Assembly (NCBI GenBank): GCA_046758705.1
Contig: JBHIAT010000031.1
Span: forward strand, 1-26,980
Direction of reading: 5' to 3'
Length of the DNA stretch: 26,980 nucleotides
Source: Candidatus Bipolaricaulia bacterium
Lineage (GTDB): Bacteria; Bipolaricaulota; Bipolaricaulia; JBHIAT01
This document shows positions 2,908 through 20,680 of this stretch, piece after piece. How positions within the stretch are numbered: the first letter of the stretch is position 1; each line of letters begins with the position of its first letter. The notes under the pieces are model-generated. The model made no database searches and had not been told where the DNA came from. It saw nothing but the letters and a program-made list of their open reading frames with translations. Both the position numbers and the translations under genes were made by a program.

Positions 2908-3657
2908 TTAGCCGACCGTCTCAAAGATCTCATCGGGGATATCGAAGTTGGCGAACACCTGCTGGACATCCTCGTGATCATCGAGCCGGTTCATCAACTT
3001 TAATATCCGCTCCGCCTCGCTCCCCTCCAGGTGCACGTTGGTGGTGGGGATCATCGTACTCTCCGCCCGACCGATCCTTGCCCCCATCGCCTCCAGTGCT
3101 TCTCGGATCTTCTGGATCAGCTTGGGGGAGCAGTAGATCTCGATCCCGTCCTCAATCTCCTGGATGTCCTCAGCGCCCAACTCGATGGCGCGCATCATCA
3201 GCTCATCGTGATCCGCTTCCGTAGCGTCTCCATCGACCACGATGACCCCCTGGCGCTCGAACAACCAGGCGACGCTTCCCTCCTCCCCCATGTGACCTCC
3301 AAACTCTTTGAAGATGCGGCGAATCCCGGAGGCGCTTCGGTTGCGATTGTCAGTGACGACTCGAACCAGCATCGCTACGCCGCCGGGCCCGTACCCTTCG
3401 TAGCTGATCTCCTCGTACTGGACTCCCTCCAGATCGCCGGTGGCTCGCTTGATCGCCCGTTCGATGTTTTCCTTGGGCATATTCACCGCCTTGGCGCGCT
3501 CGATGGCGTTGGCCAGGGACGGGTTGTTGTCGGGATCGGGGTCGTGTCGGGCGAGCAAGGTGATCTCCTTGATCAGCTTGGAGAACAGTTGTCCCCGCTT
3601 CTTATCCTGGCTCCCCTTGCGATACTTGATGTTCGCCCATTTCGAATGACCGGAAAT
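2908..3657 (-). CDS. yebC: YebC/PmpR family protein, probable ATT start
   Basis: The canonical N-terminus (M)SGHSKWANIKYRKGSQDKKRGQLFSKL follows ATT at 3657-3655, 33 codons upstream of the track start. Also YEGYGPGG, TDNRNR and DDHEDVQQVFANF. Confidence 0.93.
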   Translation of the reverse strand: MSGHSKWANIKYRKGSQDKKRGQLFSKLIKEITLLARHDPDPDNNPSLANAIERAKAVNMPKENIERAIKRATGDLEGVQYEEISYEGYGPGGVAMLVRVVTDNRNRSASGIRRIFKEFGGHMGEEGSVAWLFERQGVIVVDGDATEADHDELMMRAIELGAEDIQEIEDGIEIYCSPKLIQKIREALEAMGARIGRAESTMIPTTNVHLEGSEAERILKLMNRLDDHEDVQQVFANFDIPDEIFETVG

Positions 3658-4099
3658 GGTTATCCCCCCCTGTGAATGGAATAATCTCGATCGATCGATC
3701 GTTCGGACCGGTGATCCGGAGCCGGACGGTGATCCCCGGGGGCAGGAGCCCCACTAGCTTCTCCCCCCACTCGATCGCGGTGATCCCGGTCTCCTCCAGC
3801 AGGTAATCTCCTATCCCGATCTCGATCAGTTCCGCCGGGTCGGAGATCCGATAGGCATCGACGTGAAACAGCGGAACCTGACCGTCCCGATGCTCCCGGA
3901 TCAACAGGTAGCTGGGACTGGTGATCCGATCGGAGATTCCCAAGCCTTGAGCAATCCCCTGCACCAACGCCGTCTTGCCAGCGCCCACCTCCCCCACCAC
4001 CGAGATCAGGTCGCCTGGTTCCAGCTCACCGGCCAGTTTTCTACCGAGCGCCATCGTCTCCTCGGGGCTGTGACTGTAGACGGTCAGCGACTCCATCAC
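3602..4099 (-). CDS. tsaE: tRNA threonylcarbamoyladenosine biosynthesis ATPase TsaE
   Basis: Walker A GEVGAGKT, ITSPSY, HVDAYRI, IEWGE. The C-terminal tail overlaps yebC by 56 nt. Confidence 0.93.
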   Translation of the reverse strand: MMESLTVYSHSPEETMALGRKLAGELEPGDLISVVGEVGAGKTALVQGIAQGLGISDRITSPSYLLIREHRDGQVPLFHVDAYRISDPAELIEIGIGDYLLEETGITAIEWGEKLVGLLPPGITVRLRITGPNDRSIEIIPFTGGDNHFRSFEMGEHQVSQGEPG

Positions 4100-5352
4100 T
4101 CGATCTCGATCCTCACCCTCACGATCTCCTTGTCGGTCGCCTCCTCGACGATGAATCGCGTGCTATCGATCGTGAACGTCTCATCCTCCCTGGGCAGATC
4201 CTGCAGACGATTCAGGATCAAGCCGCTGATCGTCACCCCCTCGTCGATGGGCAGTTCGAGATCCAGGGCGTCGTTGATCTCGTCGATCTCGGCGTCTCCA
4301 TCGACCAGGAAGACTTTATCCGAGATCCGCTTGATGAGCTGTTCTGGATGATCGTACTCGTCCTCGATCTCACCGACGATCTCCTCCAGGATGTCCTCGA
4401 GCGTGATCAGGCCGGCCACCCCACCGTATTCGTTGACGACAATGGCCATGTGAACCCGCTTCGTTTGAAAGTCGCGGAGCAGCACGTTGATCGGCTTGGT
4501 CGTCGGGGTGTAGATGACGGGGTGGAGGATCTCCTGCAGCGTCACCTGGTCATCCGGATCGTATTTGAGCAGGTCCTTGGTGTACAGGATACCGACCATG
4601 TTGTCGATCGTGTCCTCGTAGACGGGACACCGAGAATGTTCAGCGGTGCTCACGATCTGTCGCACCTCATCGAGCGTCGTATTGACCTCCAGCGCGTCCA
4701 TCTCGGTGCGTGGGACCATGATCTGGCGCGCCACCAGGTTGTCATAGGAGAAGATCCGCTCGATCATCTCCCCCTCTTCCTCGGCGATCACCCCCTTCTC
4801 CTCACCGACCTCGACCAGCATCTTGATCTCCTCCTCGCTCACCTCGATCGGTTCCTGTGAGGCGATTTCCTCCCCGAACAGCCGGATAATGGATGAGGAG
4901 ATCCACTGGAACATGGTGACGGCCGGCCCGAGCAACACCGCGAACAGGTAGATGGTGTTGATCACCCCGAGCGTCACCCGTTCCGGGTGATTCTTGGCGA
5001 GGCTTTTGGGGGTGATCTCCCCAAGGATGAGCAACGAGGTGGTCATCACGACGGTGGCGATGATCGCGGCCTGATAGTCGGGTAAACTCTCGGGGAGAAG
5101 GTTGAGAAACAGCAGCGTCGCCAGCGACGCGGCGGCGACGTTGACGAGGTTATTCATAATTAGCAGCAGGGTGATCAACCGATTGGGGGACTGGATCAGG
5201 GCGTCGAGTGCCCGGGCTTTGCGCTTGTGTTGGGTCATCAGGTAGCGAAGCCGAATCTGTCCCATCGCGGTGATCGCCGTCTCGGCACTCGAGAAGTAGG
5301 CCGATGCAGCGAGTAATAGAACGAGGATGGAAAGTAGTGGTCCTGTAGGCAC
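4096..5352 (-). CDS. CNNM/CorB-CorC (hemolysin-like) Mg2+/Co2+ transporter: DUF21 + CBS pair + CorC_HlyC
   Basis: SAYFSSAETA, LLIMNNLVN, GEITPKSLA, IMVPR, HSRCPVY, VNEYGGVAGLITLEDILEEIVGEIEDEYD. Confidence 0.92.
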   Translation of the reverse strand: MPTGPLLSILVLLLAASAYFSSAETAITAMGQIRLRYLMTQHKRKARALDALIQSPNRLITLLLIMNNLVNVAAASLATLLFLNLLPESLPDYQAAIIATVVMTTSLLILGEITPKSLAKNHPERVTLGVINTIYLFAVLLGPAVTMFQWISSSIIRLFGEEIASQEPIEVSEEEIKMLVEVGEEKGVIAEEEGEMIERIFSYDNLVARQIMVPRTEMDALEVNTTLDEVRQIVSTAEHSRCPVYEDTIDNMVGILYTKDLLKYDPDDQVTLQEILHPVIYTPTTKPINVLLRDFQTKRVHMAIVVNEYGGVAGLITLEDILEEIVGEIEDEYDHPEQLIKRISDKVFLVDGDAEIDEINDALDLELPIDEGVTISGLILNRLQDLPREDETFTIDSTRFIVEEATDKEIVRVRIEIE

Positions 5353-5371
5353 CTCTCAGTTCACCGGTTCC

Positions 5372-5400
5372 ATTATATCGAGAATCTCGGTCAACCTCAA
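5372..5400 (-). promoter_or_regulatory. Putative sigma70 promoter for CNNM-tsaE-yebC
   Basis: Minus strand TTGAGG-17 nt-TATAAT, about 20 nt upstream of the GTG start, in an AT-rich divergent intergenic region. Confidence 0.5.
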
Positions 5401-5480
5401 GCTTCACCCCTTACACATATATATTATACCTCAATTTTCAGTTTTGAACTCAACCTTGCTTAATTTTACGGCCTCGTGTA

Positions 5481-5489
5481 TGCTATGAT
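5481..5489 (+). promoter_or_regulatory. Putative extended -10 promoter for accBC
   Basis: TGcTATGAT upstream of SD AAGGAGG and GTG 5519. Confidence 0.45.
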
Positions 5490-5518
5490 CGTGGGTGGTG
5501 GGACAAGGAGGATAGGCT

Positions 5519-5944
5519 GTGGAACTTGAGGAACTTCGCACGCTGATAGAGCTTTTTGATCACTCCTCCCTTACGGAAATGACGATCAAGGAGGGGGATC
5601 AGGAGCTGATCCTCAAGCGAAAATCGGCCAGACCGGTCAAGCCGATCGAAGTCCAGGCGGCCAGTGAGCGGATCGAGGAGACGTCCGCGCGCCGAGACGG
5701 CTACGTCTCGATCCGCTCACCGATAGTGGGGACCTTCTATCGGCGCCCTTCCCCGGATGAGGACCCCTACGTTGAGGTTGGTGATCGGGTCGAAGACGGA
5801 GACACCGTCTGCATCATCGAGGCGATGAAGGTCATGAACGAGATTGAAGCCGACTGCACTGGGATTATCGCGAACATCCTGGTGGAGGATGCGCAGCCGG
5901 TGGAGTACGGGCAGGAGTTATTTCTGCTCGAGCCGATCGGATAG
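5519..5944 (+). CDS. accB: Biotin carboxyl carrier protein
   Basis: [13 protein letters not shown], biotinylation motif [17 protein letters not shown]. Confidence 0.95.
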
Positions 5945-5965
5945 TCCGGAGCGACGAACGCCGAG

Positions 5966-7354
5966 ATGAGCAGAAAGGTCAAGCGGTTCAAGAGGATCCT
6001 GATCGCCAATCGTGGGGAGATCGCCCTGCGGGTGGTGGAAGCCTGTCGGGAGCTTGGTATCCAGTCGGTGGCTGTCTTCTCCGAGCCCGATCGTTCCCTG
6101 CCCCATGTTCAGCTGGCCGATGTGGCCTTCTGTATCGGTCCGGCGAGCGCCGGCGAGAGCTATCTCGACATCCCGGTACTCATGAGTGTGGCCGAGTTGT
6201 CGGGCACCGACGCCGTCCATCCCGGCTATGGATTTCTAGCCGAAGATCCTCACTTCGTCGAGATCTGCGAGGAGAGCGGCCTCGTGTTCATCGGCCCGAG
6301 CCATAGGACGATGGTGGAAGCCGGTGACAAGCTGATTGCCAAACGGAAAGTGGCCAAGGCGGAGGTCCCGGTGATTCCGGGCTCGGAGGGCGTGGTCCGG
6401 ACCGAGGACGAGTTGCTCGAAGTCACGAACGAACTGGGTTATCCACTGATCATCAAGGCGACCGCCAGCGGCGGCGGCCGGGGGATGCGCGTCGTGCAAC
6501 AGGAGGACCAGATCCGCCTGTTTCAAGCATTCCACGCCGTCCGGCGTGAGGCCGAAGCCGGGTTCGGCACCTCTGATGTCTATGTGGAACGGTATATCCC
6601 GAACCCTAAGCACATCGAGGTCCAGATTCTGGCCGATCGCGCCGGCAACGTCATCCATTGGGGAGAGCGTGACTGCTCGATCCAGCGACGCCATCAGAAG
6701 CTGATTGAGGAAGCACCGGCGCCGGGACTCAACGCGGCGACCCGGAACCGGATCCATCAGGCGGCCATCCAGGCGGCCAAGGCACTAGACTACCAAAACG
6801 TTGGGACCGTTGAGTTCATCGTCGCGGGCGATGTGCTCTACTTCCTGGAAATCAACGCGCGCATTCAGGTCGAGCACCCCATCTCCGAGATGATCACTGA
6901 CAGGGACCTGATTAAGGAGCAGATTCGGCTAGCCGAGGGAGAGAAGCTCGGCTACAGTCAACAGGAGGTCCAATTCCGTGGCCACGCCATCGAGTGCCGT
7001 ATCAACGCCGAGGATCCCTACGACGGTTTCCGTCCCTCGAGCGGCAGGATCCGGTTGAAGCAGCTTCCCGGAGGATCCGGCGTTCGAATCGACACCCATC
7101 TGTTCGACGGTCTGGAGATAACCCCCCACTATGATTCGATGCTCGCCAAGCTGATCGTATATGGACAGGACAGAACAGAGGCACGGATCAAGATGATCGG
7201 AGCCCTGGAGCGGTTTGACGTCGACGGGGTTAAGACGACCCGCGACCTATGCCGAGAGACGATCACTCATCCAACGTTCGTCGCCGGAAAGGCCGATACC
7301 GGGTTCTTGACCTCCGAGATCTTGGAGGTCCATCCTTCCCGGCAGACGACTTAG
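5966..7354 (+). CDS. accC: Biotin carboxylase
   Basis: ILIANRGEIA, HPGYGFLAE, GGGRGMR, ERDCSIQRRHQK, EINARIQVEHP, RINAED, YDSMLAKLI. Confidence 0.96.
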   Translation: MSRKVKRFKRILIANRGEIALRVVEACRELGIQSVAVFSEPDRSLPHVQLADVAFCIGPASAGESYLDIPVLMSVAELSGTDAVHPGYGFLAEDPHFVEICEESGLVFIGPSHRTMVEAGDKLIAKRKVAKAEVPVIPGSEGVVRTEDELLEVTNELGYPLIIKATASGGGRGMRVVQQEDQIRLFQAFHAVRREAEAGFGTSDVYVERYIPNPKHIEVQILADRAGNVIHWGERDCSIQRRHQKLIEEAPAPGLNAATRNRIHQAAIQAAKALDYQNVGTVEFIVAGDVLYFLEINARIQVEHPISEMITDRDLIKEQIRLAEGEKLGYSQQEVQFRGHAIECRINAEDPYDGFRPSSGRIRLKQLPGGSGVRIDTHLFDGLEITPHYDSMLAKLIVYGQDRTEARIKMIGALERFDVDGVKTTRDLCRETITHPTFVAGKADTGFLTSEILEVHPSRQTT

Positions 7355-7384
7355 GACGGGACGCCGCCGTCCCCGGCTGGCCGG

Positions 7385-7413
7385 TTGACGCCAGAACGGA
7401 ATGTTGTTAAAAT
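7385..7413 (+). promoter_or_regulatory. Putative sigma70 promoter upstream of ffh
   Basis: TTGACG-17 nt-TAAAAT with extended TG. Confidence 0.65.
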
Positions 7414-7421
7414 AATTCTGA

Positions 7422-7533
7422 TCCAACCACAGAGCTCATAGAAACTCAAACCGAAGCACCAGGGGGGCAACCAGACCCACCCTGGTCGAGGGTGTCCGAC
7501 CTCTCGGACTCGCCCGCTATACCTAAGGTTGGA
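7422..7533 (+). ncRNA. Candidate structured RNA / ffh 5' leader, family not identified
   Basis: Begins at the predicted TSS. An outer stem TCCAACC/GGTTGGA encloses two hairpins: ACCAGGGGGG/CCCACCCTGGT and GGGTGTCCGA-CCTC-TCGGACTCGCCC. Confidence 0.35.
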
Positions 7534-7559
7534 GGAGCAAGGGAGTAAGGTCATTCACG

Positions 7560-8861
7560 ATGCTTGAGCAGCTGAGCGAGAAGCTGACTTCAGTCTTGAC
7601 CCGACTGCGGCGTCAGGGAATGCTCTCTGAGGCCGATCTGGACGAGGGGTTGAAGCAGGTTCGGCTGGTGCTGTTGGAAGCCGACGTCCATTATCGGGTT
7701 GTCAAGCGCTTCGTAGACCGGGTGCGCGAGGTTGCCGTCGGCGAACGGGTCATGGACAGTCTGACGCCGGGCCAACAGGTGATCAAGATCGTTCGAGATC
7801 AGTTAGCAGCGATCATGGGCGGGGAGCGGGTCAACCTGGATCTGTCAGGACAACCGACGATCCTGATGTTGGTCGGACTCCAGGGTTCGGGGAAGACGAC
7901 CACCGCCGGGAAGCTGGCACGGCTCCTGAAACACGAAGGCAAAGCGCCCGCCCTCGTCGCCACCGATGTCTACCGACCAGCCGCCATCGAGCAGCTGAAG
8001 CAGCTCGGAGATGATCTCGGGCTGCCCACGTTCGCCGAGGGAGAGACGGCGGTCGAGATCGCGGTCAGAGCACTGACCTGGGCCAAACAAAACGCCAGGG
8101 ACGTGATCATTCTCGATACCGCAGGACGGTTGCAGATCGACCAGGAGATGATGGCGGAACTGGAGGAGACCGACCGGGTGATCCAGCCCACGGAGGTGCT
8201 GTTTGTCGCCGACGCCATGACCGGTCAGGAGGCGGTCAACGTCGCTACAGCGTTCCACGAGCGCCTCGAACTGGACGGGGTGATCCTGACCAAGCTCGAC
8301 GGCGATGCCCGGGGTGGGGCGGCGCTCTCGATCCGTGAGGTCATCGGCGTCCCGATCAAGTTCGTGGGCACCGGGGAGAAGCTCGACGCCCTCGAGCCGT
8401 TCCATCCCGATCGCATGGCCGAGTGGATCCTGGGGATGGGCGATGTGCTCACGCTCATCGAGAAGGCCGAGTCGGCGTTCGACGCTGAGCAGACCAGGAA
8501 GCTGGAGGAGAAGATCCGTAAGGATCGGTTCACCCTGCAGGACTTCCTCGAGCAACTCCACCAGGTGCGGGACATGGGGCCGCTGAGCGAGATCATCGGC
8601 AAACTGCCGGGGATGAATCGTCGGATCGAGGTCGATGAGCGTGAACTCGATCGGATCGCGGCGATCATCAATTCGATGACAGTCGCGGAGCGGGAGAACT
8701 CAGCGATCCTCAACAGCAGTCGCAAGAAACGGATTGCACGGGGATCGGGAACCCAGGTCAGCGACGTTAACCGATTGTTGAAACGGTTCGATGAGGCCAG
8801 GCGACTCATGAAACAGATGGAGGGGAGATGGGGCAGGTCCTCGGGACGGCTTCCTTTTTGA
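7560..8861 (+). CDS. ffh: Signal recognition particle protein
   Basis: LLEADV, GLQGSGKTTT, DTAGR, TKLDGDARGGAALS, M-domain IINSMT...SRKKRIARGSG. Confidence 0.97.
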   Translation: MLEQLSEKLTSVLTRLRRQGMLSEADLDEGLKQVRLVLLEADVHYRVVKRFVDRVREVAVGERVMDSLTPGQQVIKIVRDQLAAIMGGERVNLDLSGQPTILMLVGLQGSGKTTTAGKLARLLKHEGKAPALVATDVYRPAAIEQLKQLGDDLGLPTFAEGETAVEIAVRALTWAKQNARDVIILDTAGRLQIDQEMMAELEETDRVIQPTEVLFVADAMTGQEAVNVATAFHERLELDGVILTKLDGDARGGAALSIREVIGVPIKFVGTGEKLDALEPFHPDRMAEWILGMGDVLTLIEKAESAFDAEQTRKLEEKIRKDRFTLQDFLEQLHQVRDMGPLSEIIGKLPGMNRRIEVDERELDRIAAIINSMTVAERENSAILNSSRKKRIARGSGTQVSDVNRLLKRFDEARRLMKQMEGRWGRSSGRLPF

Positions 8862-8953
8862 GCTGTGCGCCCGGCTCCGAGGGATAGATATTGAGACGTG
8901 ATGGAAGCGCGCCGCGTTAAGGTATGAAGCATAAAGTATAGAGTAAGGGAGAG

Positions 8954-9229
8954 ATGATGGCAGTGAAGATCAGACTTCAGCGGGTTGGTAGGAAGAACCA
9001 GCCTGCTTACCGGGTCGTGGTCGTCGATGAGCGGAAGCCGAGGGACACCCGGGTGATCGATCGCCTCGGGCACTACAACCCTCTGCCCGACCCCCCGGAG
9101 ATCGAGATCGATACGGGGAGAACTGTGGAGTGGCTAATCAATGGGGCTCAACCGACCGAAGCGGCCCGAGCGCTGCTAAAGAAGTTCGGGGTGATGGCCG
9201 AGTTGCATCGATTGCGGCACGGAGGGTAG
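8954..9229 (+). CDS. rpsP: 30S ribosomal protein S16
   Basis: MAVKIRLQRVGRKNQPAYRVVVVDERKPRD...LGHYNP...WLINGAQPTE. Confidence 0.96.
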   Translation: MMAVKIRLQRVGRKNQPAYRVVVVDERKPRDTRVIDRLGHYNPLPDPPEIEIDTGRTVEWLINGAQPTEAARALLKKFGVMAELHRLRHGG

Positions 9230-9263
9230 CCCGCCAAACGGCCCTCCAAGATCGGGGTCGGGA

Positions 9264-9497
9264 ATGCTACTGAGACTGTTGGAGTACTTGGTCTCATTTC
9301 TGGCGGATGATCCCGAGGGGATCCAGATCGATCGTATCGAGACTCCGAAGGTCGATCTGTTCTTTCTGAGGGTTCAGGAAAGCGATCGAGGTCGGATCCT
9401 CGGCAGAAACGGACGGACCGCGGAAGCGATCCGCGATCTGATGCAGACTGCCGCCGCCCGGCTCGGGAAGGAAGCCATCATCGATATCATCGAGTAA
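9264..9497 (+). CDS. khpA: KH-domain RNA-binding protein (KhpA/YlqC)
   Basis: DRGRILGRNGRTAEAIR (GxxG motif), 77 aa, canonical position after rpsP. Confidence 0.88.
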   Translation: MLLRLLEYLVSFLADDPEGIQIDRIETPKVDLFFLRVQESDRGRILGRNGRTAEAIRDLMQTAAARLGKEAIIDIIE

Positions 9498-9502
9498 GAG
9501 GG

Positions 9503-10225
9503 ATGAATATGGTCGAACCGACGGACCGATCGATCCGAACCGTGAGGTTAAGAATCGATATCCTGACCCTGTTCCCGGAGATGCTGATCGGTTTCTTCAG
9601 CATGGGCGGACTGGCCCGAGCTCAGCAGTGTGGCCTGATCGAAATCCATCTCCACCACCTCAGGGAGTTCGCGACCGGCAAGCACAGACAGGTCGACGAT
9701 CGACCCTACGGCGGAGGCCCGGGGATGGTCCTGAAAGCCGAGCCGTTCTTCCGGGGGGTGGAGCATATCAAAGATCAGGTTCCGGGGACACCTCGGGTGA
9801 TTCTGTTCACGTCTCGGGGGAGGCGCTTCAATCAAACGCTCGCTAAGGAGTTGGCCCAAGAAGGCCACCTGATCCTACTCTGTGGCCGGTATCAAGGGGT
9901 CGATGAGCGGGTGACCCAGATCGTCACCGATGAAATCTCCATCGGTGACTTCGTACTCAGCGGGGGGGAGGCCGCCACCGCGGCCGTGGTCGAGGCGACC
10001 GCTCGGCTGATTCCCGGTGTTGTCGGAAACTGTGAGTCGGTGACGCGCGATTCCTTCTACGCGGAGTCCATGCTCGGCCCGCCTCAATACACCCGACCCC
10101 AACACTTCAGAGACTATGAGGTGCCTGAGGTGTTGCTTTCCGGAGATCACGCACGGATCGAGGCGTTTCGTCGGGAAAAAGCACGGGAAAAGACCCGACG
10201 GAATCGACCCGATCTGTTGGAGTAA
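9503..10225 (+). CDS. trmD: tRNA (guanine37-N1)-methyltransferase
   Basis: TLFPEM, VDDRPYGGGPGMV, CGRYQGVDER, SIGDFVLSGGE, PQYTRP, VPEVLLSGDH. Confidence 0.95.
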   Translation: MNMVEPTDRSIRTVRLRIDILTLFPEMLIGFFSMGGLARAQQCGLIEIHLHHLREFATGKHRQVDDRPYGGGPGMVLKAEPFFRGVEHIKDQVPGTPRVILFTSRGRRFNQTLAKELAQEGHLILLCGRYQGVDERVTQIVTDEISIGDFVLSGGEAATAAVVEATARLIPGVVGNCESVTRDSFYAESMLGPPQYTRPQHFRDYEVPEVLLSGDHARIEAFRREKAREKTRRNRPDLLE

Positions 10226-10262
10226 GAGCGGGAGCCTGTTCATATGTCCGTATACGATTACG

Positions 10263-10892
10263 ATGATGGCAAACCTCTATATCGGGCTGCTTCACCATCC
10301 GATACAGAACAGGCGGAGTGAGATCGTGACGACGGCGATCACCACCATCGACGTCCACGACATCGCCCGGACCGCCAGGACCTACGGGGTTGTGGGCTAT
10401 CACATTGTGACCCCGCTCGTCTCTCAGCAGCAGATCGCATCCCGGATCGTCGATTACTGGACGAAGGGAGGCGAGTCTGAAGACCTGACCCATCGTGGGG
10501 AGGCGTTGGCGTTGATCGAGATCGTTGATCGGTTTGAGATCAGTATGGCACAGATTGAGGCGGCCGAGGGCGCCGTTCCGCTCACCGTTGGGACATCGGC
10601 CCGAGATCTCTCGGATCTGGGAGTGCCGACGGTTGAATATCAGGAACTCAAGCGTATAATGGAAGGCGAACGACGGCCGATCTATCTGCTCTTTGGAACC
10701 GGTTGGGGGATCGCTGATGAGCTGTTGGAGAGATTTGATTGTTTGCTGCCACCGATCCGTGGGTACCCGTGTGAGGATGGGGATTCGTATAACCATCTCT
10801 CCGTCCGTGCGGCAGTGGCGATCATCCTGGATAGGTTGCGAGGTGGACCGAGTCTGTCGCGGGACGATCGAGGTGGAGAAAGGTCGGCATAG
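10263..10892 (+). CDS. SPOUT RNA methyltransferase of the Tm1570-like family (Methyltrn_RNA_4)
   Basis: [55 protein letters not shown]. This family typically lies next to trmD. Start trimmed from 10116 to avoid overlap with trmD. Confidence 0.85.
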
Positions 10893-10921
10893 GTATTAGG
10901 TATCTAGGTATCAAGGGAGCG

Positions 10922-11245
10922 GTGGTTCGTATGGATCATCTGATCAAATCGATCGAAGCTGAGTTTGTCCGGGATGGCGTTCCGAGCTTCTCGCCCGGGG
11001 ATACGATTCGCGTCTACGAACGGATCTCCGAAGGCTCAAAGGATCGGGTTCAGGTCTTTGAAGGCGTGGTGCTCAAACGGGCTCACGGAGGGACTCGGGA
11101 GACATTCACCGTCCGCAAGATCTCCGGGGGGGTCGGGGTGGAGAAGACCTATCCCCTCCATTCCCCGAAGATCGATCGGATCGATCTGGTCACCCGAGGA
11201 AATGTCCGTCAGGCGCGTCCCTATTATCTGAGACGGAGGAGTTGA
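10922..11245 (+). CDS. rplS: 50S ribosomal protein L19
   Basis: [50 protein letters not shown]. The start may be ATG 10931. Confidence 0.96.
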
Positions 11246-12555: not shown

Positions 12556-12580
12556 CAGAGGGATAGGATTGCCCTATAAT
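12552..12580 (+). promoter_or_regulatory. Perfect-consensus sigma70 promoter for the envelope operon
   Basis: TTGACA (12552-12557, overlapping the rnhB stop), 17 nt, TATAAT (12575-12580). Confidence 0.85.
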
Positions 12581-12766
12581 GAGGAAAACGTGCCAAATAT
12601 ATTGAGAAAATGAAGAGATACCTTGGTACAAGGCGGACAGATAAGGGGGTGAGTCATAGCGGATCGCAGGTCGAGGTAGCGAACTGAAGGCCCTTCCCGA
12701 TGCAGGCGGTCCAACGGGAGTTCGATCTTTGTCTTTTTGGGATCTTTAAATAACAAGGAGGTCACA

Positions 12767-13807
12767 TTGAGAATAACGAGGAGGTTAAAAGGAGGAAGGG
12801 CGGTAATGCTGACGTTGGCCCTGCTGTTGGCCATCCTATGGTATCCGCACTCAGCCTTCTCTCAGGAGGCGCTGTTCGTTGATGTCCCAATCAATCACTG
12901 GGCAGCCGACGCCCTACAGTTTCTGGCGGATCGGGGGATCATCACCGGGATGCCCGACGGCACGTTTCAGGGAGATCGCTCCCTCAGCCGATATGAGGCA
13001 TCGGTCCTCGTCTTTCGAGCAGTTCAGTTCGGCCTCGATGAGTTGATTGTCACCGCCCAGGATTTGGAGACCCTCGAAAACCTCACCGTCCGACTCGCCG
13101 ACCGTCTCCGAGACATGGGCCAGGATGTCGGGGCGATGCAGCAAGTGTTGGATGAAGCGCGTGCTACCATCGAAAGCAACTTCGACGATCTGCTCTCGGT
13201 CAAGGATCTATCGGTGGAGGCGTTTCGAAAAGCACTTGATGTGGAACGCCGGGTCGCCGGGGTGACAGCGTCTGAGGCGATCCTCGACGATGTCAACGTC
13301 CTGATCGGCCCGCTGGAGCGGAACGTATCGGATCTGATCGATCTCAGCGGGCAGTTGCTCGAGGATACCGCTGATAACGAAAGAAAAATCGCTATCTTGG
13401 AGTCCGATCTCGAACCGCTGAACGAACGGGTAGACACGCTGGAGTCCGACCTGACGCTCGCCACACAGAGTCTCCGGACAAACACCTCACGGGCCATCGT
13501 GACGAACCGCCAAGACATCATAGCCAACCAACAGGACGTCGCAACGCTCCAGACCACGGTCTCGGATCTGGAGTCCCGGGTGTCCAACAACCAGACCGAT
13601 CTCGCCGCCACCCGAGACCTGCTCGATTCGGTCGCCGGGAGGGCCGGGGAGGCGCTGCGGACCGCCACGGAACTGAGCGACCAAGTGGCCGCCCTAGGCG
13701 ACCAAGTGGCCGCCCTGGACGTCGCTGCGGTCAGCAGTCGGGTCAACACGAACCGGACTTTCGCGATCATCGCGTTGCTCGCTGGCATAGCTGGGATCTT
13801 CACGTAA
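12767..13807 (+). CDS. SLH domain + long coiled-coil + C-terminal hydrophobic tail protein (Omp-alpha-like envelope tether)
   Basis: TTG start after SD AAGGAGGT (alternative ATG 12806). Signal peptide ending AFS-Q; SLH motif FVDVPINHWA...GIITGMPDGTFQGDRSLSRYEA; heptad-patterned middle region; ends FAIIALLAGIAGIFT. Confidence 0.85.
   Translation: MRITRRLKGGRAVMLTLALLLAILWYPHSAFSQEALFVDVPINHWAADALQFLADRGIITGMPDGTFQGDRSLSRYEASVLVFRAVQFGLDELIVTAQDLETLENLTVRLADRLRDMGQDVGAMQQVLDEARATIESNFDDLLSVKDLSVEAFRKALDVERRVAGVTASEAILDDVNVLIGPLERNVSDLIDLSGQLLEDTADNERKIAILESDLEPLNERVDTLESDLTLATQSLRTNTSRAIVTNRQDIIANQQDVATLQTTVSDLESRVSNNQTDLAATRDLLDSVAGRAGEALRTATELSDQVAALGDQVAALDVAAVSSRVNTNRTFAIIALLAGIAGIFT
13677..13718 (+). 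repeat. 21-nt tandem duplication (one coiled-coil heptad)
   Basis: GCGACCAAGTGGCCGCCCTAG followed by GCGACCAAGTGGCCGCCCTGG, encoding DQVAALG-DQVAALD. Confidence 0.85.
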
Positions 13808-13919
13808 TTAGTGAAATTGCCTAATCTAAAGGGGAGGTGATAGTAGGTACGAGTAGCAAGTCGGGTGAACGCTCACATCACCAGTGTAAAATATTCACAC
13901 ATTAAGGAGGTAACCTCAC

Positions 13920-14888
13920 ATGCGAGGTAAGTTTTTGGTTGTCCTCTTCGTCGGATTGCTGGTCGCTTCTACGCCAGCGTGGGCTGTAGAGTTTGATGCA
14001 TCGGGGGATTTCACGTCCACTTTAAATGTCACTCAAAGCCCAGCAGCACCAATGGCTTTTGGAACGACCGGGAGTGCTGAGTTCTCTGCAAGTGCTTCAG
14101 TTGGAGAAGACGCTCGGTTTGTCGTCGATGTAAGCCTTGAATTCGATTTTGATGCTTCCGTGGGTCAAACCACTGAATCACCGTTAGAATTTGATTTCAG
14201 TGAGGCCTACGTCATCCTGTTTGAGAACTCCCGGTTTGGACTGTCGAGCTTCGACACTGATGGGACCCCGGCAGAAATCTTCGAAAGTCTCGGGGAAGGA
14301 AGCTCGGACTTCGATGGATTTGGGTATTCGCTAGCCATGGATCCGTTTAGTATTGACTTGTCGGTCGATCTCGCCCAGACAGCAGAAGCCGCTCCTGCGG
14401 CAGATCCTATTGGTCCTCAGGTCGACGTCCTTGTCGGAGGCGGGTTCGGTCCGGTCGCGGTGACCCTTAATGCGATCGACCTAACGAGTGTTCAACCAGC
14501 GGGTCTAACAGTGAATGCGACAGCTTCGGTCGAAATGCCCATGGGACCGGCTAACGTCTATGCGGGAGTCAACGCGACGCTGACCCCCGCCCCGGCGGCC
14601 TTTTTCGCTCTCGTCGGTGCGACCATAGATATCGGTTCCTCGGTCACTGTGGAGTTCACCACCGACGACGAAGGTGACGGGACCGGTGTAACTGACCTAG
14701 GCGTCTCGGCGGACTTCAGCTTCGGAGCCATCGATCTCAGCGCTGAGGCGACCGGGTTAGCAGGCCCCAATGCCCCCCTCTCGTGGGAAGTCACCGTGTC
14801 TACGGCCTTGAGTGACGTGACCACCCTCTCGTTAGCCGTGTCGGATGAGGGTGGAGCTGTCGACGTCGAGGTTGAGACGAGTTTCTGA
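13920..14888 (+). CDS. Putative major outer-membrane beta-barrel/porin-like protein, paralog 1
   Basis: SD TAAGGAGGT. Signal peptide ending AWA-VEF; porin-like start VEFDASGDF; amphipathic strands throughout; very acidic; ends VEVETSF with terminal Phe. Confidence 0.7.
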   Translation: MRGKFLVVLFVGLLVASTPAWAVEFDASGDFTSTLNVTQSPAAPMAFGTTGSAEFSASASVGEDARFVVDVSLEFDFDASVGQTTESPLEFDFSEAYVILFENSRFGLSSFDTDGTPAEIFESLGEGSSDFDGFGYSLAMDPFSIDLSVDLAQTAEAAPAADPIGPQVDVLVGGGFGPVAVTLNAIDLTSVQPAGLTVNATASVEMPMGPANVYAGVNATLTPAPAAFFALVGATIDIGSSVTVEFTTDDEGDGTGVTDLGVSADFSFGAIDLSAEATGLAGPNAPLSWEVTVSTALSDVTTLSLAVSDEGGAVDVEVETSF

Positions 14889-14922
14889 TGATGTAGGACT
14901 AGGCAACTAGGACAGGATAGAG

Positions 14923-14954
14923 AACCCCGAGCTCTCACAGCTCGGGGTTTTTTT
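14923..14954 (+). terminator. Rho-independent terminator after paralog 1
   Basis: AACCCCGAGCT-CTCAC-AGCTCGGGGTT followed by a T-run. Confidence 0.92.
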
Positions 14955-15031
14955 ATTAACCGCCCTCACGACATGCTAAACCCGTAGCTCTCCGGGAAGG
15001 ATAGCTGATGGGGTAGAAGGAGGTTATCTCC

Positions 15032-16180
15032 ATACAAAGTAAGTTTCTGGCTGTCCTGTTCGCTGGGTTGTGGATCACTTCTGTCACTTCTTTAACACCG
15101 GCGTTGGCCGTAGAGCTTGATGTATCGGGATATCTCACGGCCACATTCGAAATGGAAGTTGGAGCGCAAACTTTCTCCACGGCCAGTGAAGTTGGGTTCA
15201 CTTTAGATGCTCCACTCGGGGAAGACGTTCGGTTGTTCGCCAGTATAAACGGTTCTGCTGATACTGACCCTACTTCACAGACACCCGGAACGCTAGCGTT
15301 CGAATTCGATGAGGCCTACCTCATCCTGTTTGAAAACTTTCGTTTGGGTCGGTCGAGCTTCTTCAATGACGGGACCCCGGCAGAAATCTTCAGCAGCCTT
15401 GGGGAAGTAGACTCGGACTTTGATGGATTTGGGTATTCGCTGGCCATGGGCCCGGTGAATGCTGACCTATCGGCCGATTTCGCAAACGGCGTGCAACCCC
15501 CTGAGATCGACGTCCTTGCCTCAGGTGAGTTCGGTCCGGTCACGGTGACCGTTAACGGTGTCGATCTCTTGTCATCGACTCAAACGGCTCCATCAGTAAA
15601 TGCGACCGCCTTCCTCGAAATGCCCATAGGACCGGCCACGGTCTATGCAGGGGTCAACGCGCAACTGACCGACCCCGACCCCAGCAACTCTCCTAACGAG
15701 ACTCACGTTGATCCAGGCACATTCTTTACCGTTGGTGCGACTCTAGATTTAGAGTTCGCTGCCTCCATCACCGTGGAACTCTCAACCGACGCCTTCGGTG
15801 ATGGTGTAGCCCTGGACGATACAGGAGCCTTGGTCCCTGACACTGACCTAGGCGTCTTGTTGGATTTCAGCTTCGGAGCCATCGATCTCAGTGCTGAGGT
15901 GATCGGGATATTGGTTCCACCTATCCTATGGGAGGTCACCGCATTTACAGGCTTGAGCGATATCATCAGCCTCTCGGTAACCCTGGATGATCTCGGACTG
16001 ATCGCAGTGGATTTCAGCTTTGGGGCCATCGATCTCAGCGCTGAAGTGGACGGGATATTGTTTGATCTTCCCTTGTGGGAAGTCACCGCGTCTATAGACT
16101 TGACCGATAGCACCAGCCTCTCGGTAACCCTGGATGATCTCGGACTGATCGAAGTAGCGATTGAGGCGAGTTTCGGATGA
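15032..16180 (+). CDS. Putative outer-membrane beta-barrel protein, paralog 2 (ATA start, internal duplication)
   Basis: SD AAGGAGGT (15017-15024), 7 nt, then ATA. IQSKFLAVLFAGL aligns with MRGKFLVVLFVGL of paralog 1. Shared blocks EAYxILFEN, DGTPAEIF, SDFDGFGYSLAM, DFSFGAIDLSAE. Confidence 0.7.
   Translation: MQSKFLAVLFAGLWITSVTSLTPALAVELDVSGYLTATFEMEVGAQTFSTASEVGFTLDAPLGEDVRLFASINGSADTDPTSQTPGTLAFEFDEAYLILFENFRLGRSSFFNDGTPAEIFSSLGEVDSDFDGFGYSLAMGPVNADLSADFANGVQPPEIDVLASGEFGPVTVTVNGVDLLSSTQTAPSVNATAFLEMPIGPATVYAGVNAQLTDPDPSNSPNETHVDPGTFFTVGATLDLEFAASITVELSTDAFGDGVALDDTGALVPDTDLGVLLDFSFGAIDLSAEVIGILVPPILWEVTAFTGLSDIISLSVTLDDLGLIAVDFSFGAIDLSAEVDGILFDLPLWEVTASIDLTDSTSLSVTLDDLGLIEVAIEASFG
15861..16154 (+). 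repeat. 147-nt (49-aa) tandem duplication within paralog 2
   Basis: Copies begin TGGATTTCAGCTT at 15861 and 16008. An identical block CAGCCTCTCGGTAACCCTGGATGATCTCGGACTGATCG occurs at 15967 and 16114. Confidence 0.9.
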
Positions 16181-16275
16181 TGTGAGCGGATTCAGGGGTT
16201 TGGGGAGTGGCCGTACCCGTTGACGGGTTCCCTGACCCTGTGCTATCTTTAAGGTATAAAGGTATAATCATCATC

Positions 16276-18687
16276 ATGAACGCCACCAAGATGCTCAGTC
16301 TCCCGGCTCTCAAACGGGCGCTGACCACCCTGTTTATCTTCACCCTGCCGCCGTTGATCTACTTCGGGAACACCTCCTACGGGTATACCAAGGCGATCTT
16401 CGCCCTGGTCGGTATCTCGATCCTGTTGGTGGTCTGGGGGATCGAGATGGTGATGGTGAACGGAAGAGGGAAGAGGAAAGGGAAGGGGAGAAGCAACGGA
16501 TATCGGTTCAACAAGACGGAGCTGTTTCTGCCCGCGCTGCTGCTGATCCTGGCGCTGACGGTCTCGGCGGTGGTCAATGCGAGCTTCGGCAATGCCAACC
16601 TCGGCTTGGGTCTTGAGAGTCTGGGTCTGATCGTCTACTACCTGCTGCTCTACCTGGTGGTGGCGAACCTGGTGACCCGTCGCAGCGATCTGCTGCTCAT
16701 CCTCGGCAGCCTGTTCGCGTCGGCCGTGCTCGTCTCCAGCTACGGGCTGCTCCAGTACTACGGCTTCGAGATCTTCCCCTATCCCTTCCGGCGCATCTCC
16801 GGGGGGCCGAGTGCGATGATCTCGACGTTGGGCAACCGGAACTTTCTCGCCGGCTTTCTCGCGTACCTGGTGATCCCGTCGTTGATTCTGCTGTTCAGCG
16901 TCAGACGGAGGATCTCGAAGGCATTGGTGCTGCTCGGCGTCACTGTGATCTACACGACGTTGTTCGCCACCCACGCACGCGGGCCGTTGATGGGGTTGAT
17001 CGCTGGGGGGATCTTCTTCATCGGCGGGCTGGCCTTCTTGAAGGTTCGGAAACCGTTGCGGGTCAATTGGAGGTGGACGACCGCGCTCATCGTCTTGCTG
17101 ATCGGGGCCACCGCCCTGTTCTGGAGCCCAAACTCGCTGAACCGAAGCCGCAGGTCGGCCACTCAGGAGATCACTACCGCCTTCGACGCCGGTTCGGCCG
17201 ATACGAGAACCCGATTCTACGACTGGTGGGTCACCTGGGAGATGATCAAGGACGAGCCGATCATCGGGATCGGCCTCGGCAACTACAAGCGCGATTTTCT
17301 CTATTACAAAGCTCAGTTCATCGATACGGAGCGTGGAGCGCCCTATGCTGACTACTTCATCCACAAGGCCAATCAGGCACACAACGAATACGTGCAGGTG
17401 TGGGCAGAGACGGGGACGTTGGGTCTGCTAGCCACCGCCGCCGTCGTACTGCTGTTGTTTCGCACCAAGATCCGCGATGCGATCAAAGCGAAGTCCGAGC
17501 AGGATCGACTGGTCCTCTGGGGGTTGCTCTCCGGGGTCGTTGCCCTATTCGCTCACGCGACGGTCAGCTTTCCGTTGCACCTGCCCGCCTCCTCGCTCGC
17601 CTTGGTGGTCATCCTCGGGCTGCTTCACTCCAGATACTTCATCGGTGAGCGGTATTCGGTCGAACTGAGCCGCCGTGGGGCCGGAGTGATCGCCGTCTTG
17701 CTCTTGTTCATAGCGGTCTCGGTGAGTTGGTTCGCCGCCCAGGACTTTATCAGTAATACCTACTTCAAGCGGGGGCGCGACCATTTCCTCGCGGGCGATC
17801 TGGCGGCAGCACAGCGTGACTACGAGGAGGCGCTCGACCTCGAATTTCAGCCGTCGGATCTGCTGTTTGCATTGGGTGTGATCGAGAGACGCAAGAATAA
17901 TCTTGAGGCAAGTGAGTTTTACTTCAACAGCTCTCTGGACGCGTTCACCGATGTTAACACATTCCTCAACCTCGGTCTGATCCAGCGAAAACGGGGCGAC
18001 CTCCAGGATGACCAGGCTCTGGCCCGAGAATACTATCTGGAGGCGATCCCCTACTTCGAACAGGCGATTGTCCTCGACCCCACTCACCTCGACGCGCGTT
18101 ATCTGAAGGCTCAGATGTTGCTGAAAGCTGGAGAGTTCGAGGCCGGGGCCGCGACATTGCAGGAACTCCTGGCCCGCGACCCTAGTTACGCCCGGGCCTA
18201 TATCGAGCTCGGCAACCTCTACCGGTTTCAGGCCAACCGTCACACCGAAGCCGGGAATCTCCAGGTCGCTGATGCCCTCCTGAAGGAGGCCACCGTCAGT
18301 TACCGCGAAGCGCTGAAGGTGATCGAAAGAAAGGTTCAGGATCTCCGTGAGCGATTCCAGGGAAGAACTCTAGCGCCCAGTGCATACAACCAGGTGATGG
18401 GGGAGATCGACTCGCTGGGGAGGATGTACGTGGACGGCCAGATCAGATTAGGGGACCTCTACGTCCGTCGGGCCGAGGTCACGGCCGATGCCGAAACCGC
18501 CACCGCCCGCCAGGATCGGGCGATCGCCAGCTACCGTGCCGCCCTGACGGCCGTCGAAGGCCAACTCCGGGACTTTCTCAGGCGTTACGAAGCAGGACGG
18601 TTGCGGCGCGAGGAATATCAAGCGGCTCAGGCAGACCTTGAGAAGACACGGGAGCGCATCCTGGAGCGGCTGGAAAGGTTAAAGTAA
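16276..18687 (+). CDS. O-antigen ligase / O-oligosaccharyltransferase-like (Wzy_C) membrane protein with C-terminal TPR repeats
   Basis: Many TM helices; YGLLQYYG, STLGNRNFLAG, ARG, WEMIKDEPIIGIGLGNY, QAHNEYVQVWAETGTLG; TPR-like helices after about aa 500. ATG 16276 preferred over GTG 16207. Confidence 0.85.
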   Translation: MNATKMLSLPALKRALTTLFIFTLPPLIYFGNTSYGYTKAIFALVGISILLVVWGIEMVMVNGRGKRKGKGRSNGYRFNKTELFLPALLLILALTVSAVVNASFGNANLGLGLESLGLIVYYLLLYLVVANLVTRRSDLLLILGSLFASAVLVSSYGLLQYYGFEIFPYPFRRISGGPSAMISTLGNRNFLAGFLAYLVIPSLILLFSVRRRISKALVLLGVTVIYTTLFATHARGPLMGLIAGGIFFIGGLAFLKVRKPLRVNWRWTTALIVLLIGATALFWSPNSLNRSRRSATQEITTAFDAGSADTRTRFYDWWVTWEMIKDEPIIGIGLGNYKRDFLYYKAQFIDTERGAPYADYFIHKANQAHNEYVQVWAETGTLGLLATAAVVLLLFRTKIRDAIKAKSEQDRLVLWGLLSGVVALFAHATVSFPLHLPASSLALVVILGLLHSRYFIGERYSVELSRRGAGVIAVLLLFIAVSVSWFAAQDFISNTYFKRGRDHFLAGDLAAAQRDYEEALDLEFQPSDLLFALGVIERRKNNLEASEFYFNSSLDAFTDVNTFLNLGLIQRKRGDLQDDQALAREYYLEAIPYFEQAIVLDPTHLDARYLKAQMLLKAGEFEAGAATLQELLARDPSYARAYIELGNLYRFQANRHTEAGNLQVADALLKEATVSYREALKVIERKVQDLRERFQGRTLAPSAYNQVMGEIDSLGRMYVDGQIRLGDLYVRRAEVTADAETATARQDRAIASYRAALTAVEGQLRDFLRRYEAGRLRREEYQAAQADLEKTRERILERLERLK

Positions 18688-18712
18688 GTAGTCAGCTATC
18701 AGCTCTTATAAA

Positions 18713-19339
18713 TCAAGAAGCCGTTTTTACCGGCACCCGCGCCTCGATGACCCGATCGATGAGCCCGTACTCGTTTGCCTCCTGAGGTGACATGAAGTAG
18801 TCTCGATCGGTGTCCTGCTGCACCTGCTCCAGATCTTGCCCGGTGTGTCTGGTCAGGATCTCGTTGATCACCTGCTTGTAGCGCAATACCTCTCGGGCCT
18901 GGATGTCGATGTCGCTGGGCGCACCTCCCAGGCCATAGGCACTTCCCTGATGGATCATGATTCTCGAATGGGGCAGCGCTTGGCGTTTGCCTGGGGTGCC
19001 CGCGGCCAACAGCACCGCCCCCATCGACGCCGCCTGGCCGATGCAGATCGTGGTGACGTCGCACTGGACGTACTGCATGGTGTCATAGATCGCCAAGCCT
19101 GAGGTGACCGACCCGCCGGGGGTGTTGATGTAAAGCTTGATATCTTTCTCCGGGTCTTTGGCTTCCAGGTAGAGCATCTGGGCGATGATCAGGTTGGCAA
19201 CGGTGTCTTCGACCACATATCCCAGGAAGACGATGCGATCCTCCAACAGCCGGGAGTAGATGTCGTAAGCCCGGTCGTAGCGGCCGGTGTTGTCGATCAC
19301 CGTCGGGATCGGTATCTGGACCGGTCTTTGGAATTTCAT
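18713..19339 (-). CDS. clpP: ATP-dependent Clp protease proteolytic subunit
   Basis: [31 protein letters not shown] (catalytic Ser), IMIHQ (catalytic His), DRDYFMS. Confidence 0.96.
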
Positions 19340-20661
19340 TCTTCCGTAGTTCCCTCCTTCTGCTCCTGTTCCGCCTCCGGCACCGGGGCCGGGACGATCT
19401 TCGCCTGTTCGTAGAGGAAGTCCAGGATGCGCTCGGTCTCCTTGCGCCTTTGGAAGCGCTCGAGTTCCTCGGGCTTCGCCCGCATCTCATTCTTGAACTT
19501 GATCGGGTTCTGGTCGAGACGCACCGCCTCCTTCTCGATCAGGTCGTCGAGGGCCGGGCCGGAGAGCTCCAATCCTTCGGCCTTCTTGATCGTCTCTAAC
19601 ACGAGCTCCCGCTTGATCTGAAGTTCTGCCTGTTCCCGGTAGTCGCCCGCGACCGTCTCCTCGGTTGTCTCCTCCTGCTCTAAGAACTCCTCGAACGAGG
19701 AGTAGGCGGTCGCGGAGTAGCCGATCATCTGTTTCAGATCCTCAAGGTCCTGCTTGGCCATCCCATCCCGCAACCGCTCGGGGACATTGATCTCAGTCAT
19801 CTCGACGATCTTGTCCAAGAGCTTGAGCTGCATCTCCGCCCGCTGCCGCTCCCGGGTGCTCACTTCAAGGTCGTCCCGGATCGCCCGCGTGAGCGCTTCC
19901 AGGTGCTCATAGCCGTGATCCACGGCGAACGCATTATCCAGTTCAGGCAGCTCGACCCGCTTGAGCGAGACAAGTTTCACCCGGCTGCGGTAAGTCTCTT
20001 CTCCGAGTTGGAGCTCGATCTCCCGCTCGTCGCCAACCCGCATCCCCATCAGTTGCTTGCCGAACCGGCTGTCTTCCGAGACCACCAGTTCACGCTCCTC
20101 GGTCTTCCCCGGTTCGTCATCGAGAACCATCTGTTCTTGGATGAGCATGACGTCGCCGTCTTCGACAACCTCCCCCACCGCTTTGGGGACGGTCCAGCCG
20201 TGGGCGCGTCGCAGCCGCTCCAGGGCGGCCTCGAGCTCCGATTCCTCGATCGGCTGGAGGGGAATCTCCTCGATCTCCACTCCCTGGTAGTCCGCGACTT
20301 GGATCTCCGGGAGGATCTCAACCGTCACCTCGAACCGGAACGGCTTCCCTTCCTCAAACTCGATGACCTCGAACTCGGGCTCGGCGACCGGTTCCAGCTC
20401 CAACTCCTCGAGCACCTGGGGCAGATGCTCGTTGACCAGTCGGGCTTGAGCATCCTCATAGAAGAAATCCTTGCCGAATCTCGCCTCCAGGAAGCTCCGT
20501 GGGATCCTTCCCCGGCGGAAGCCGGGGATCTCCATCTCCCGGACCGCCTCCCGGTAGATGGTCTCGATCATCTTGTCCACGAACTCCGCCGGCAATTCGA
20601 CCTTGATCAGGCACTCACTGGCGCTCTGCTGTTCGACCTCGGTCTTCGCTCTTGTCGCTAT
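19336..20661 (-). CDS. tig: Trigger factor, probable ATA start
   Basis: Ribosome-binding motif [31 protein letters not shown]. Similarity begins at [11 protein letters not shown], whose ATA (20661) follows SD GGGGGGAGGG just after the hflC stop. Confidence 0.9.
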
Positions 20662-20680
20662 AGGCTTTCCCTCCCCCCGT

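Follow-up and report, generated by a model that had tools for sequence, protein, structure and literature searches.

The window analysed here is a stretch of 26,980 nucleotides (positions 1 to 26,980 of contig JBHIAT010000031.1, assembly GCA_046758705.1), which is contig C31 of a metagenome-assembled genome (MAG) of a Candidatus Bipolaricaulia bacterium, designated as G000. The MAG comprises 319 contigs (3.70 Mb, 57% G+C), with an estimated completeness of 93.9% and an estimated contamination of 4.7%. The window carries three genes, yebC, tig (trigger factor) and the second of two paralogous genes designated as barrel paralogs 1 and 2, whose probable start codons are ATT or ATA and not one of the canonical codons ATG, GTG and TTG. 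Each of these codons, which together with ATC are referred to as ATH (AUH in mRNA), follows a Shine–Dalgarno (SD) site. We characterized the three starts individually, in the whole of G000 and in a class-level comparison set of 30 relatives, in which the nearest compared genomes are small (1.2–2.3 Mb).

The yebC/TACO1-family gene (2908..3657, minus strand) is intact over 249 codons and matches Pfam PF20772 (E 1.9e-31) and PF01709 (E 1.1e-55). Its probable start codon, ATT at 3655..3657 on the minus strand, occupies the Met position of the conserved (M)SGHSKW, the start region on that strand reading AGGGGGGGAT-AACC-ATT TCC GGT CAT TCG AAA TGG, or (I/M)SGHSKW. Positions 1–72 of the Pfam model TACO1_YebC_N correspond to residues 5–74 numbered from the ATT, and the first in-frame canonical codon is TTG 3558, 33 codons downstream. 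The codon aligned to the ATT is ATG in 27/27 class relatives, and it is likewise canonical in all 80 of the other, more distant bacteria compared (ATG 73, GTG 5, TTG 2), which confirms the earlier placement of this ATT at the Met of MSGHSKW. The SD-like AGGGGGGGAT (3662..3671, minus strand) lies 4 nt upstream of the ATT; when paired by hand with the 16S rRNA tail, GGATCACCTCCTTT, 9 of its 10 positions pair if one G-U pair is allowed. This SD is thus imperfect, being G-rich with one mismatch, and an exact-match SD scorer missed it. The best relatives are 62–63% identical to the protein, and the frame has no internal stops. The 3′ end of tsaE (3602..4099, minus strand; Pfam TsaE E 5.9e-34, residues 10–131) overlaps the start of yebC by 56 nt in a different frame, tsaE ending 53 nt past the ATT. 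The SD and the ATT are located inside the coding region of the C-terminal tail of tsaE.

Barrel paralog 2 (15032..16180, plus strand; 382 codons) has a signal peptide-like N-terminus and no Pfam family. Its probable start codon is ATA at 15032..15034 (plus strand), 7 nt downstream of the SD AAGGAGGT (15017..15024, plus strand), which is complementary to the 16S tail over all 8 nt. An in-frame TAG at 15014–16 stands directly before AAGGAGGT, and no canonical codon occurs from this TAG to TTG 15068, a start at which would halve the typical signal peptide. The neighbouring barrel paralog 1 (13920..14888, plus strand) starts with ATG and carries the same AAGGAGGT (13904–13911) 8 nt upstream. BLASTP aligned paralog 2 to paralog 1 with 47% identity (E 2e-82), and the ATA fell on the ATG of paralog 1, as had been proposed.

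The tig gene (19336..20661, minus strand; 441 codons, intact) matches Pfam Trigger_N (E 2.2e-34) and Trigger_C (E 5.2e-17), position 2 of the Trigger_N model corresponding to residue 6. Its probable start codon is ATA at 20659..20661 (minus strand). From the SD to the conserved KTEVEQ, a motif identical in the relative G001, there is no other ATH codon. The SD, GGGGGGAGG (20670..20678, minus strand), is separated from the ATA by 8 nt (GAAAGCCT) and lies within the 19 nt that follow the stop codon (20681–20683) of a Band_7 gene. Reading the tig frame from codon −95 to codon +22 (TTG 20595) revealed no ATG, GTG or TTG between them, and the claim that ATA 20661, with GGAGG 8 nt upstream, has no canonical competitor that keeps the N-terminus holds. 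The closest relatives begin with MKTEVEQ or MKTKVEE; the position of their Met is GCG here, and the ATA is 4 codons upstream of it. The clpP gene (18713–19339; Pfam CLP_protease E 1.1e-79) follows tig. As read by eye, the tig start codons of 29 class relatives are ATG in 7, TTG in 7 and GTG in 15; the average gene is about 80% ATG, and tig across the class is mostly non-ATG. The ATA of tig may be one step beyond the weak start codons that are already common on this gene in the class.

The three genes share the hallmarks of AUH-started genes. An ATH codon stands at Met1 (exactly in yebC and paralog 2, and 4 codons upstream of the relatives' Met in tig), no canonical codon preserves the N-terminus, and the SD is complementary to the organism's own 16S tail at a functional spacing, the three spacings falling within the 4–11 nt window obtained from 1199 ATG starts of G000. 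Codon identity, reading frames, SD geometry, N-terminal homology, base calls and genome-wide rarity are matters of direct observation. From these sequence features, we consider it likely, with a probability of about 0.72, that yebC, tig and paralog 2 are live genes that start at near-cognate AUU or AUA behind an SD and belong to the same type as infC, pcnB and ccpN. The warning that gene callers would misplace such starts is borne out in the window: an ORF (open reading frame) list limited to ATG, GTG and TTG starts yebC at 3558 and paralog 2 at 15068, truncating both, and over-extends tig to TTG 21051.

Several points weigh against this reading. The ATH state is not conserved, being found in 0/27 class relatives at the yebC start and in 0/29 at the tig start. 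The yebC gene was not found in 3 of the 30 relatives searched and thus is dispensable in some lineages, and AAGGAG stands 5 nt upstream of its TTG 3558, a motif that doubles as the conserved K-E of the protein. A start model assigned a posterior of only 0.035 to the ATT of yebC; that for the ATA of tig was 0.27. Trigger factor is normally abundant, so that a start codon of 1–10% strength is unexpected on tig. The SD enrichment tests described below would reveal 10% usage plainly and cannot resolve a dozen genes. Finally, yebC and tig may have lost their starts recently, on the way to gene decay.

This last point is the core of the alternative that the ATG was lost recently and at least one of the three genes, most plausibly paralog 2 or yebC, is now an untranslated pseudogene or silenced copy. 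It fits the uniqueness of ATH to G000 for yebC and tig, the failure to find yebC in three relatives and the presence of an intact, ATG-started twin next door to paralog 2. The genes themselves do not look decayed, however: the frames are intact over 249, 382 and 441 codons without internal stops, and the domain matches are full-length for yebC and tig. The 33 N-terminal residues of YebC are conserved at least as well as the rest (22/33 or 67% identical to G008, a relative with a complete genome, vs 55% for the whole protein). The strong SDs are kept at the correct spacing, the ATT of yebC also occurs in another strain, which has 4 differences at nearby positions, and tig is present in 29 of the 30 relatives. 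With no frameshift or internal stop found, and no relaxed constraint in the N-terminal region of YebC, we regard start loss as an unlikely explanation.

A further alternative is that translation begins at the first canonical in-frame codons after the ATH, namely TTG 3558 (yebC), TTG 15068 (paralog 2) and TTG 20595 (tig), yielding shortened proteins. The AAGGAG before TTG 3558 speaks for it, whereas TTG 15068 and TTG 20595 have no SD match. Moreover, the proteins would lose 33 of 72 positions in the N-domain of YebC, half of paralog 2's signal peptide and 22 residues at the beginning of Trigger_N; each of these regions is conserved at the protein level. We consider such downstream initiation somewhat less probable again than start loss.

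The preliminary description had gone beyond the three genes and, from about 3 in 30 genes, suggested either lineage-wide relaxed start selection or SD-dominated initiation. In the stronger form considered here, IF3 or proofreading at the P site would be weakened, and about 10% of genes would have AUH starts. We analysed 3301 ORFs of G000, with the SD motif (GGAGG type) and the 4–11 nt spacing measured on 1199 confident ATG starts. Among in-frame leader codons before the first canonical codon, ATG (35%), GTG (17%) and TTG (16%) were strongly enriched behind an SD, whereas ATA (5.5%), ATT (3.0%) and ATC (4.8%) showed no bulk excess over the background of 5.6%. Likewise, with SD matches of at least 7 nt in the first 120 codons, 59 ATA, ATT and ATC codons were observed vs about 62 expected; ATA behind an SD of at least 8 nt was slightly enriched (5 observed vs 1.8 expected). 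Start codon usage by the model was ordinary (ATG 2314, GTG 286 and TTG 162; n = 2865). An SD match of at least 4 nt was present at only 642 of the 1199 confident ATG starts; initiation in G000 overall is not SD-dominated, and that part of the suggestion is not supported.

Stop-to-stop translations of 3157 ORFs from G000 were also searched against the genome of G008, the one relative used for this test. A match at E 1e-10 or better was obtained for 1194 G000 ORFs, on 694 distinct G008 ORFs. Homology starting upstream of every canonical codon was initially flagged for 141 ORFs in G000 and 112 in G008. The majority of the raw flags were artefacts, caused by BLAST alignments running on into the 3′ end of a conserved gene that lies upstream in another frame, by shadow ORFs or by paralogue matches, and the flags were curated by eye on the basis of coding potential and alignments. 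After curation, 9/1194 genes in G000 (0.75%) and 5/694 in G008 (0.7%) were without a canonical start; these rates, both detection-limited and curation-dependent, do not differ. The nine in G000 are yebC (ATT), tig (ATA), rpsT (ATT), infC (ATC), yggS (ATC), mraY (ATC), rng (ATT), an ABC permease gene (ATC, opposite a GTG in G008) and an MGMT-EndoV fusion gene (ATC), while the five in G008 are rpsT (ATT), infC (ATT), rng, a PCMT gene and an ABC permease gene (CTG). A Pfam domain begins upstream of the first canonical codon in rpsT, infC, the permease gene, yggS, the MGMT gene and an AIM24 gene (ATA). Besides the genes of the window, a start of this pattern is thus supported in G000 by Pfam or by an orthologue for rpsT, infC, yggS, the ABC permease gene, the MGMT-EndoV fusion gene, mraY, rng and the AIM24 gene; when SD-supported, signal peptide-like candidates are added, there are approximately 12–16 ATH starts among about 3300 ORFs.

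Other approaches served as sources of candidates or were abandoned. An expectation-maximization (EM) model with start priors over all 61 codons was biased towards codons common in coding sequences and then towards A/T-rich codons (AAA 144, AAG 109, ATA 93), and its output was used solely as a candidate source. A uniform-prior model yielded 5–6 ATA and 2–6 ATT starts, no higher than for TTA, CTA and GTA, and had poor sensitivity. A test based on the expected start position (68/543 vs 29/374 flagged) was too noisy and was dropped. Among individual candidates, an ATT in a short-chain dehydrogenase gene on contig C221 was rejected, given that the Pfam match begins at model position 23 and the start is further upstream or the gene truncated; for DnaE on contig C38 and several further ATA calls, a GTG stands in frame directly before the ATA. 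A weaker fourth candidate of the preliminary description, ATA 10242 in the gene for a SPOUT-type RNA methyltransferase, also proved unnecessary (rejected start and probable start region 10242..10268, plus strand). The probable start is ATG 10263 or 10266: the ATG ATG at 10263–10268 lies 2–3 residues before position 1 of the Pfam model Methyltrn_RNA_4, which corresponds to residue 11 numbered from ATA 10242, and in the alignment falls on the Met of the orthologue in G008, as expected of an ordinary ATG gene. Between 10230 and 10320, an out-of-frame ATG at 10244, 9 nt after GGGAG and upstream of the methyltransferase gene, would open an ORF of about 25 codons that overlaps the true start and may be an upstream ORF.

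Relaxed selection does draw on some observations. Three of about 27 genes in one window are affected, and the supported ATH starts number at least about a dozen, vs about 0.05% of annotated starts in model genomes, for which ATG, GTG and TTG are given as 99.95% (bioRxiv 10.1101/063800). The slight excess of ATA behind SDs of at least 8 nt and a second initiator-like tRNA described below point in the same direction. Nevertheless, at a rate of 1%, the probability of at least three ATH starts among 27 genes is about 0.002, and about 0.3 such windows are expected among the 137 per genome; the window is therefore an outlier picked by its reader and not a sample of the genome. AUH starts in G000 are a rare, gene-by-gene state, with around a dozen supported genes, or less than about 1% of the genome, and do not amount to a change in the start rules. 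The genome-wide counts, including the lack of a bulk ATH excess and the equal rates in G000 and G008, largely refute the relaxed-selection reading, which we consider very unlikely and a little less probable than downstream initiation.

The initiation apparatus, whose inspection was recommended at the outset, bears on the same question. The infC gene of G000 starts at ATC; AAGGAGG lies 9 nt upstream, and position 1 of IF3_N follows six residues later. In the class, infC has ATC, ATT or ATA 5–9 nt after an SD in 30/30 loci read, 4 of which also have a nearby ATG or GTG. This is the classical autoregulatory design of IF3 and implies that IF3 still discriminates against AUH, because a self-regulating ATC start on infC only works with discrimination. 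The 16S rRNA tail is GGATCACCTCCTTT, with a canonical anti-SD. A canonical initiator tRNA, with C1xA72, A11:U24 and the three G-C pairs, is encoded on contig C194; G000 also has a tRNA(CAU) resembling tRNA-Ile2 and an elongator tRNA-Met. The infC start, the 16S tail and the canonical initiator tRNA speak against relaxed selection.

In addition, G000 encodes a second initiator-like tRNA(CAU) (contig C109:10792-10866). Its acceptor stem is the same as that of the canonical initiator (C1xA72); it has U11:A24 and an anticodon stem with A29:U41, G30:C40 and C31:G39 (au/GC/cg), and lies in an ordinary chromosomal context, adjoining acetyl-CoA synthetase and bifunctional-nuclease genes. Initiators were recovered in 23 of the 30 relatives searched and all have GGG/CCC, so that au/GC/cg occurs in G000 only among the 24 genomes with a match. 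The published natural variants of the initiator anticodon stem comprise au/GC/GC, GC/GC/gu and au/GC/gu; E. coli requires the middle G30:C40 pair and grows with cg/GC/cg (PMC5389676). By analogy, the second tRNA could be functional, because it keeps the essential G30:C40 and cg/GC/cg is sufficient for the growth of E. coli.

The explanation with the least in its favour is that the letters are wrong, through sequencing or assembly, or that ATA has been reassigned to Met. Logan contigs of three runs (X1, X2 and X3, about 10x each) cover all three start sites and show no alternative letter; these runs belong to one study, are possibly the source samples and test the assembly, not independent biology. 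A contig of a fourth run, X4 (3537–4019), differs at 4 positions, none of them within 3655–3657, and the ATT is thus kept by a 99%-identical strain. No ATG was seen at the start sites in these contigs, and the base calls withstood the check. As to reassignment, the residues opposite ATA codons inside genes are V, I or L in 67% of cases and M in only 8%, as for ATT and ATC, and a tRNA(CAU) on contig C88 resembles tRNA-Ile(GAU), as judged by eye; ATA still encodes Ile, and its reassignment to Met is excluded. A draft MAG of 319 contigs with 4.7% estimated contamination invites suspicion of error, which these results make highly improbable.

AUH starts as such are not peculiar to G000 in this class. 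The rpsT gene (ribosomal protein S20; G000 contig C15:9496-9789) has an ATT start. In all 29 class genomes with a match (31 were searched, 2 had no match, and one weak second match was left out), rpsT starts at ATT (24), ATA (4) or ATC (1), 5–6 nt after GAGGTGAT. The stretch from the upstream stop to the ATH is free of canonical codons in 14 of the 29, and in 13 an in-frame GTG falls within the SD. The predicted AUH start of rpsT is thus conserved class-wide, in a gene already noted for its weak UUG in E. coli. The RNase E/G-family gene rng (G000 contig C20:6811-8052) likewise has an ATT start in G000. Among 30 class loci, in which the SD geometry was read by eye, rng starts at ATH (ATT or ATC) in 16, at a canonical codon (ATG or TTG) in 10 and at CTG in 1; the remaining 3, from the genus including G008, have CTC at the aligned position and no recognisable start codon. 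Conservation across relatives therefore divides these genes, with ATH in 29/29 for rpsT and 30/30 for infC, and in 0/27 for yebC and 0/29 for tig.

The near-cognate starts of E. coli and Staphylococcus aureus provide the closest parallels. The codons AUA, AUC, AUU and CUG yield 1–2% of the expression from AUG in E. coli, where only infC and pcnB are confirmed (bioRxiv 10.1101/063800). As in these two genes, which have AUU starts read by the ordinary initiator tRNA, limited expression and sensitivity to IF3, the three genes of the window would use a near-cognate AUH behind an SD, and infC of G000 itself has ATC. Binns and Masters 2002 is cited by PMC13009471. Unlike those of the E. coli pair, the AUH codons of yebC, tig and paralog 2 are specific to G000 and not conserved. 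In S. aureus, infC (AUA), cvfC1 (AUU), ccpN (AUA) and citZ (AUA) are translated from AUA or AUU behind extended SDs at about 10–30% of AUG, on the basis of retapamulin Ribo-seq and reporters (PMC13009471). A long SD helix near the start is common to these genes and to paralog 2 (AAGGAGGT), rpsT (GAGGTGAT) and the AIM24 gene (AGGAGGTGA). The AUA of citZ is limited to one strain lineage, while the AUH starts of infC, ccpN and cvfC1 are conserved (PMC13009471); conservation is hence not obligatory for this type of start, and yebC and tig would be lineage-limited like citZ. The present cases, predicted from sequence, differ from those of S. aureus in that they come from a different phylum and include housekeeping genes. 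In E. coli, the weak UUG start of rpsT is thought to serve autoregulation, and the same S20 gene has AUH in this class; the proteobacterial rpsT starts given in the consulted part of that source are UUG, GUG and AUG, with no AUH named, whereas those of this class are AUU, AUA and AUC (PMC10931766).

Taken together, these results lead us back to initiation at near-cognate codons as the preferred reading. The start codons of the three genes would have drifted in the G000 lineage from ATG, GTG or TTG to AUU or AUA. The strong SD helix may position the 30S subunit at this codon, where ordinary fMet-tRNA (anticodon CAU) would pair with the first two bases and the mismatch at the third position would be tolerated, so that the protein would still begin with Met. 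Initiation at the ATT and ATA codons is probable, and no usable canonical start preserves the conserved N-termini; its efficiency is probably low, with an output that would be a fraction of the AUG rate and depend on the level of IF3. The same initiation would already be conserved class-wide for infC and rpsT, and often for rng. Because the ATH state of yebC, tig and paralog 2 is specific to G000, it may reflect near-neutral drift buffered by the SD or a means of lowering expression.

A speculative extension, to which we give little credence, is that genes of the translation apparatus with AUH starts behind strong SDs make up a regulon that responds to IF3, comprising infC, rpsT and often rng, and here also tig and yebC, with the second initiator-like tRNA perhaps being dedicated to it or more permissive. 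The infC product is an initiation factor, S20 is a 30S protein, trigger factor is a ribosome-bound chaperone, YebC is a ribosome-rescue/translation factor, and rng encodes a member of the RNase E/G family, a kind of enzyme that in E. coli takes part in 16S rRNA maturation. If such a regulon existed, the synthesis of five proteins acting on ribosomes or rRNA would follow the amount of free IF3 relative to ribosomes.

The sequencing runs containing the window are hydrothermal-vent metagenomes of one study, and the closest named-record matches of yebC are from uncultured Thermotogae, Ca. Fraserbacteria and Ca. Bipolaricaulota, with identities of at most 61%. The gene content of the window is ordinary housekeeping: tsaE-yebC, a CNNM transporter gene, accB-accC, ffh-rpsP-KH-trmD, the SPOUT methyltransferase gene, rplS, lepB, rnhB, a gene for an SLH protein, the two paralogous genes for secreted proteins without a Pfam family, an O-antigen-ligase/TPR gene, clpP-tig, two Band_7 genes, guaA and recO. 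In the strain of run X4, the O-antigen-ligase/TPR gene (16207–18687) is missing 8 bases close to its 5′ end, at 16251, a loss that would frameshift it. Elsewhere in G000, at about position 11612 of contig C29, ribosomal protein L27 has an N-terminal extension, MWRARFDLQLF ahead of AHKTSGGS, while L27 of G008 begins at MAHKTSGGS; the extension resembles the Prp-cleaved propeptide of Firmicutes L27.

For annotation, these starts mean that callers limited to ATG, GTG and TTG misplace the starts of yebC, tig, paralog 2, rpsT, infC, rng, mraY, yggS and others in G000 and the class, which results in proteins that lack an N-terminal domain or signal peptide or are falsely extended. The window also serves as a worked negative: three AUH genes within a single window turned out not to signify relaxed start selection, and the two readings can be told apart by the tests used here. 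For the organism and its class, the genes for trigger factor, YebC, S20 and the RNase E/G-family enzyme would join, as housekeeping genes, the short list of genes with a natural AUH start.

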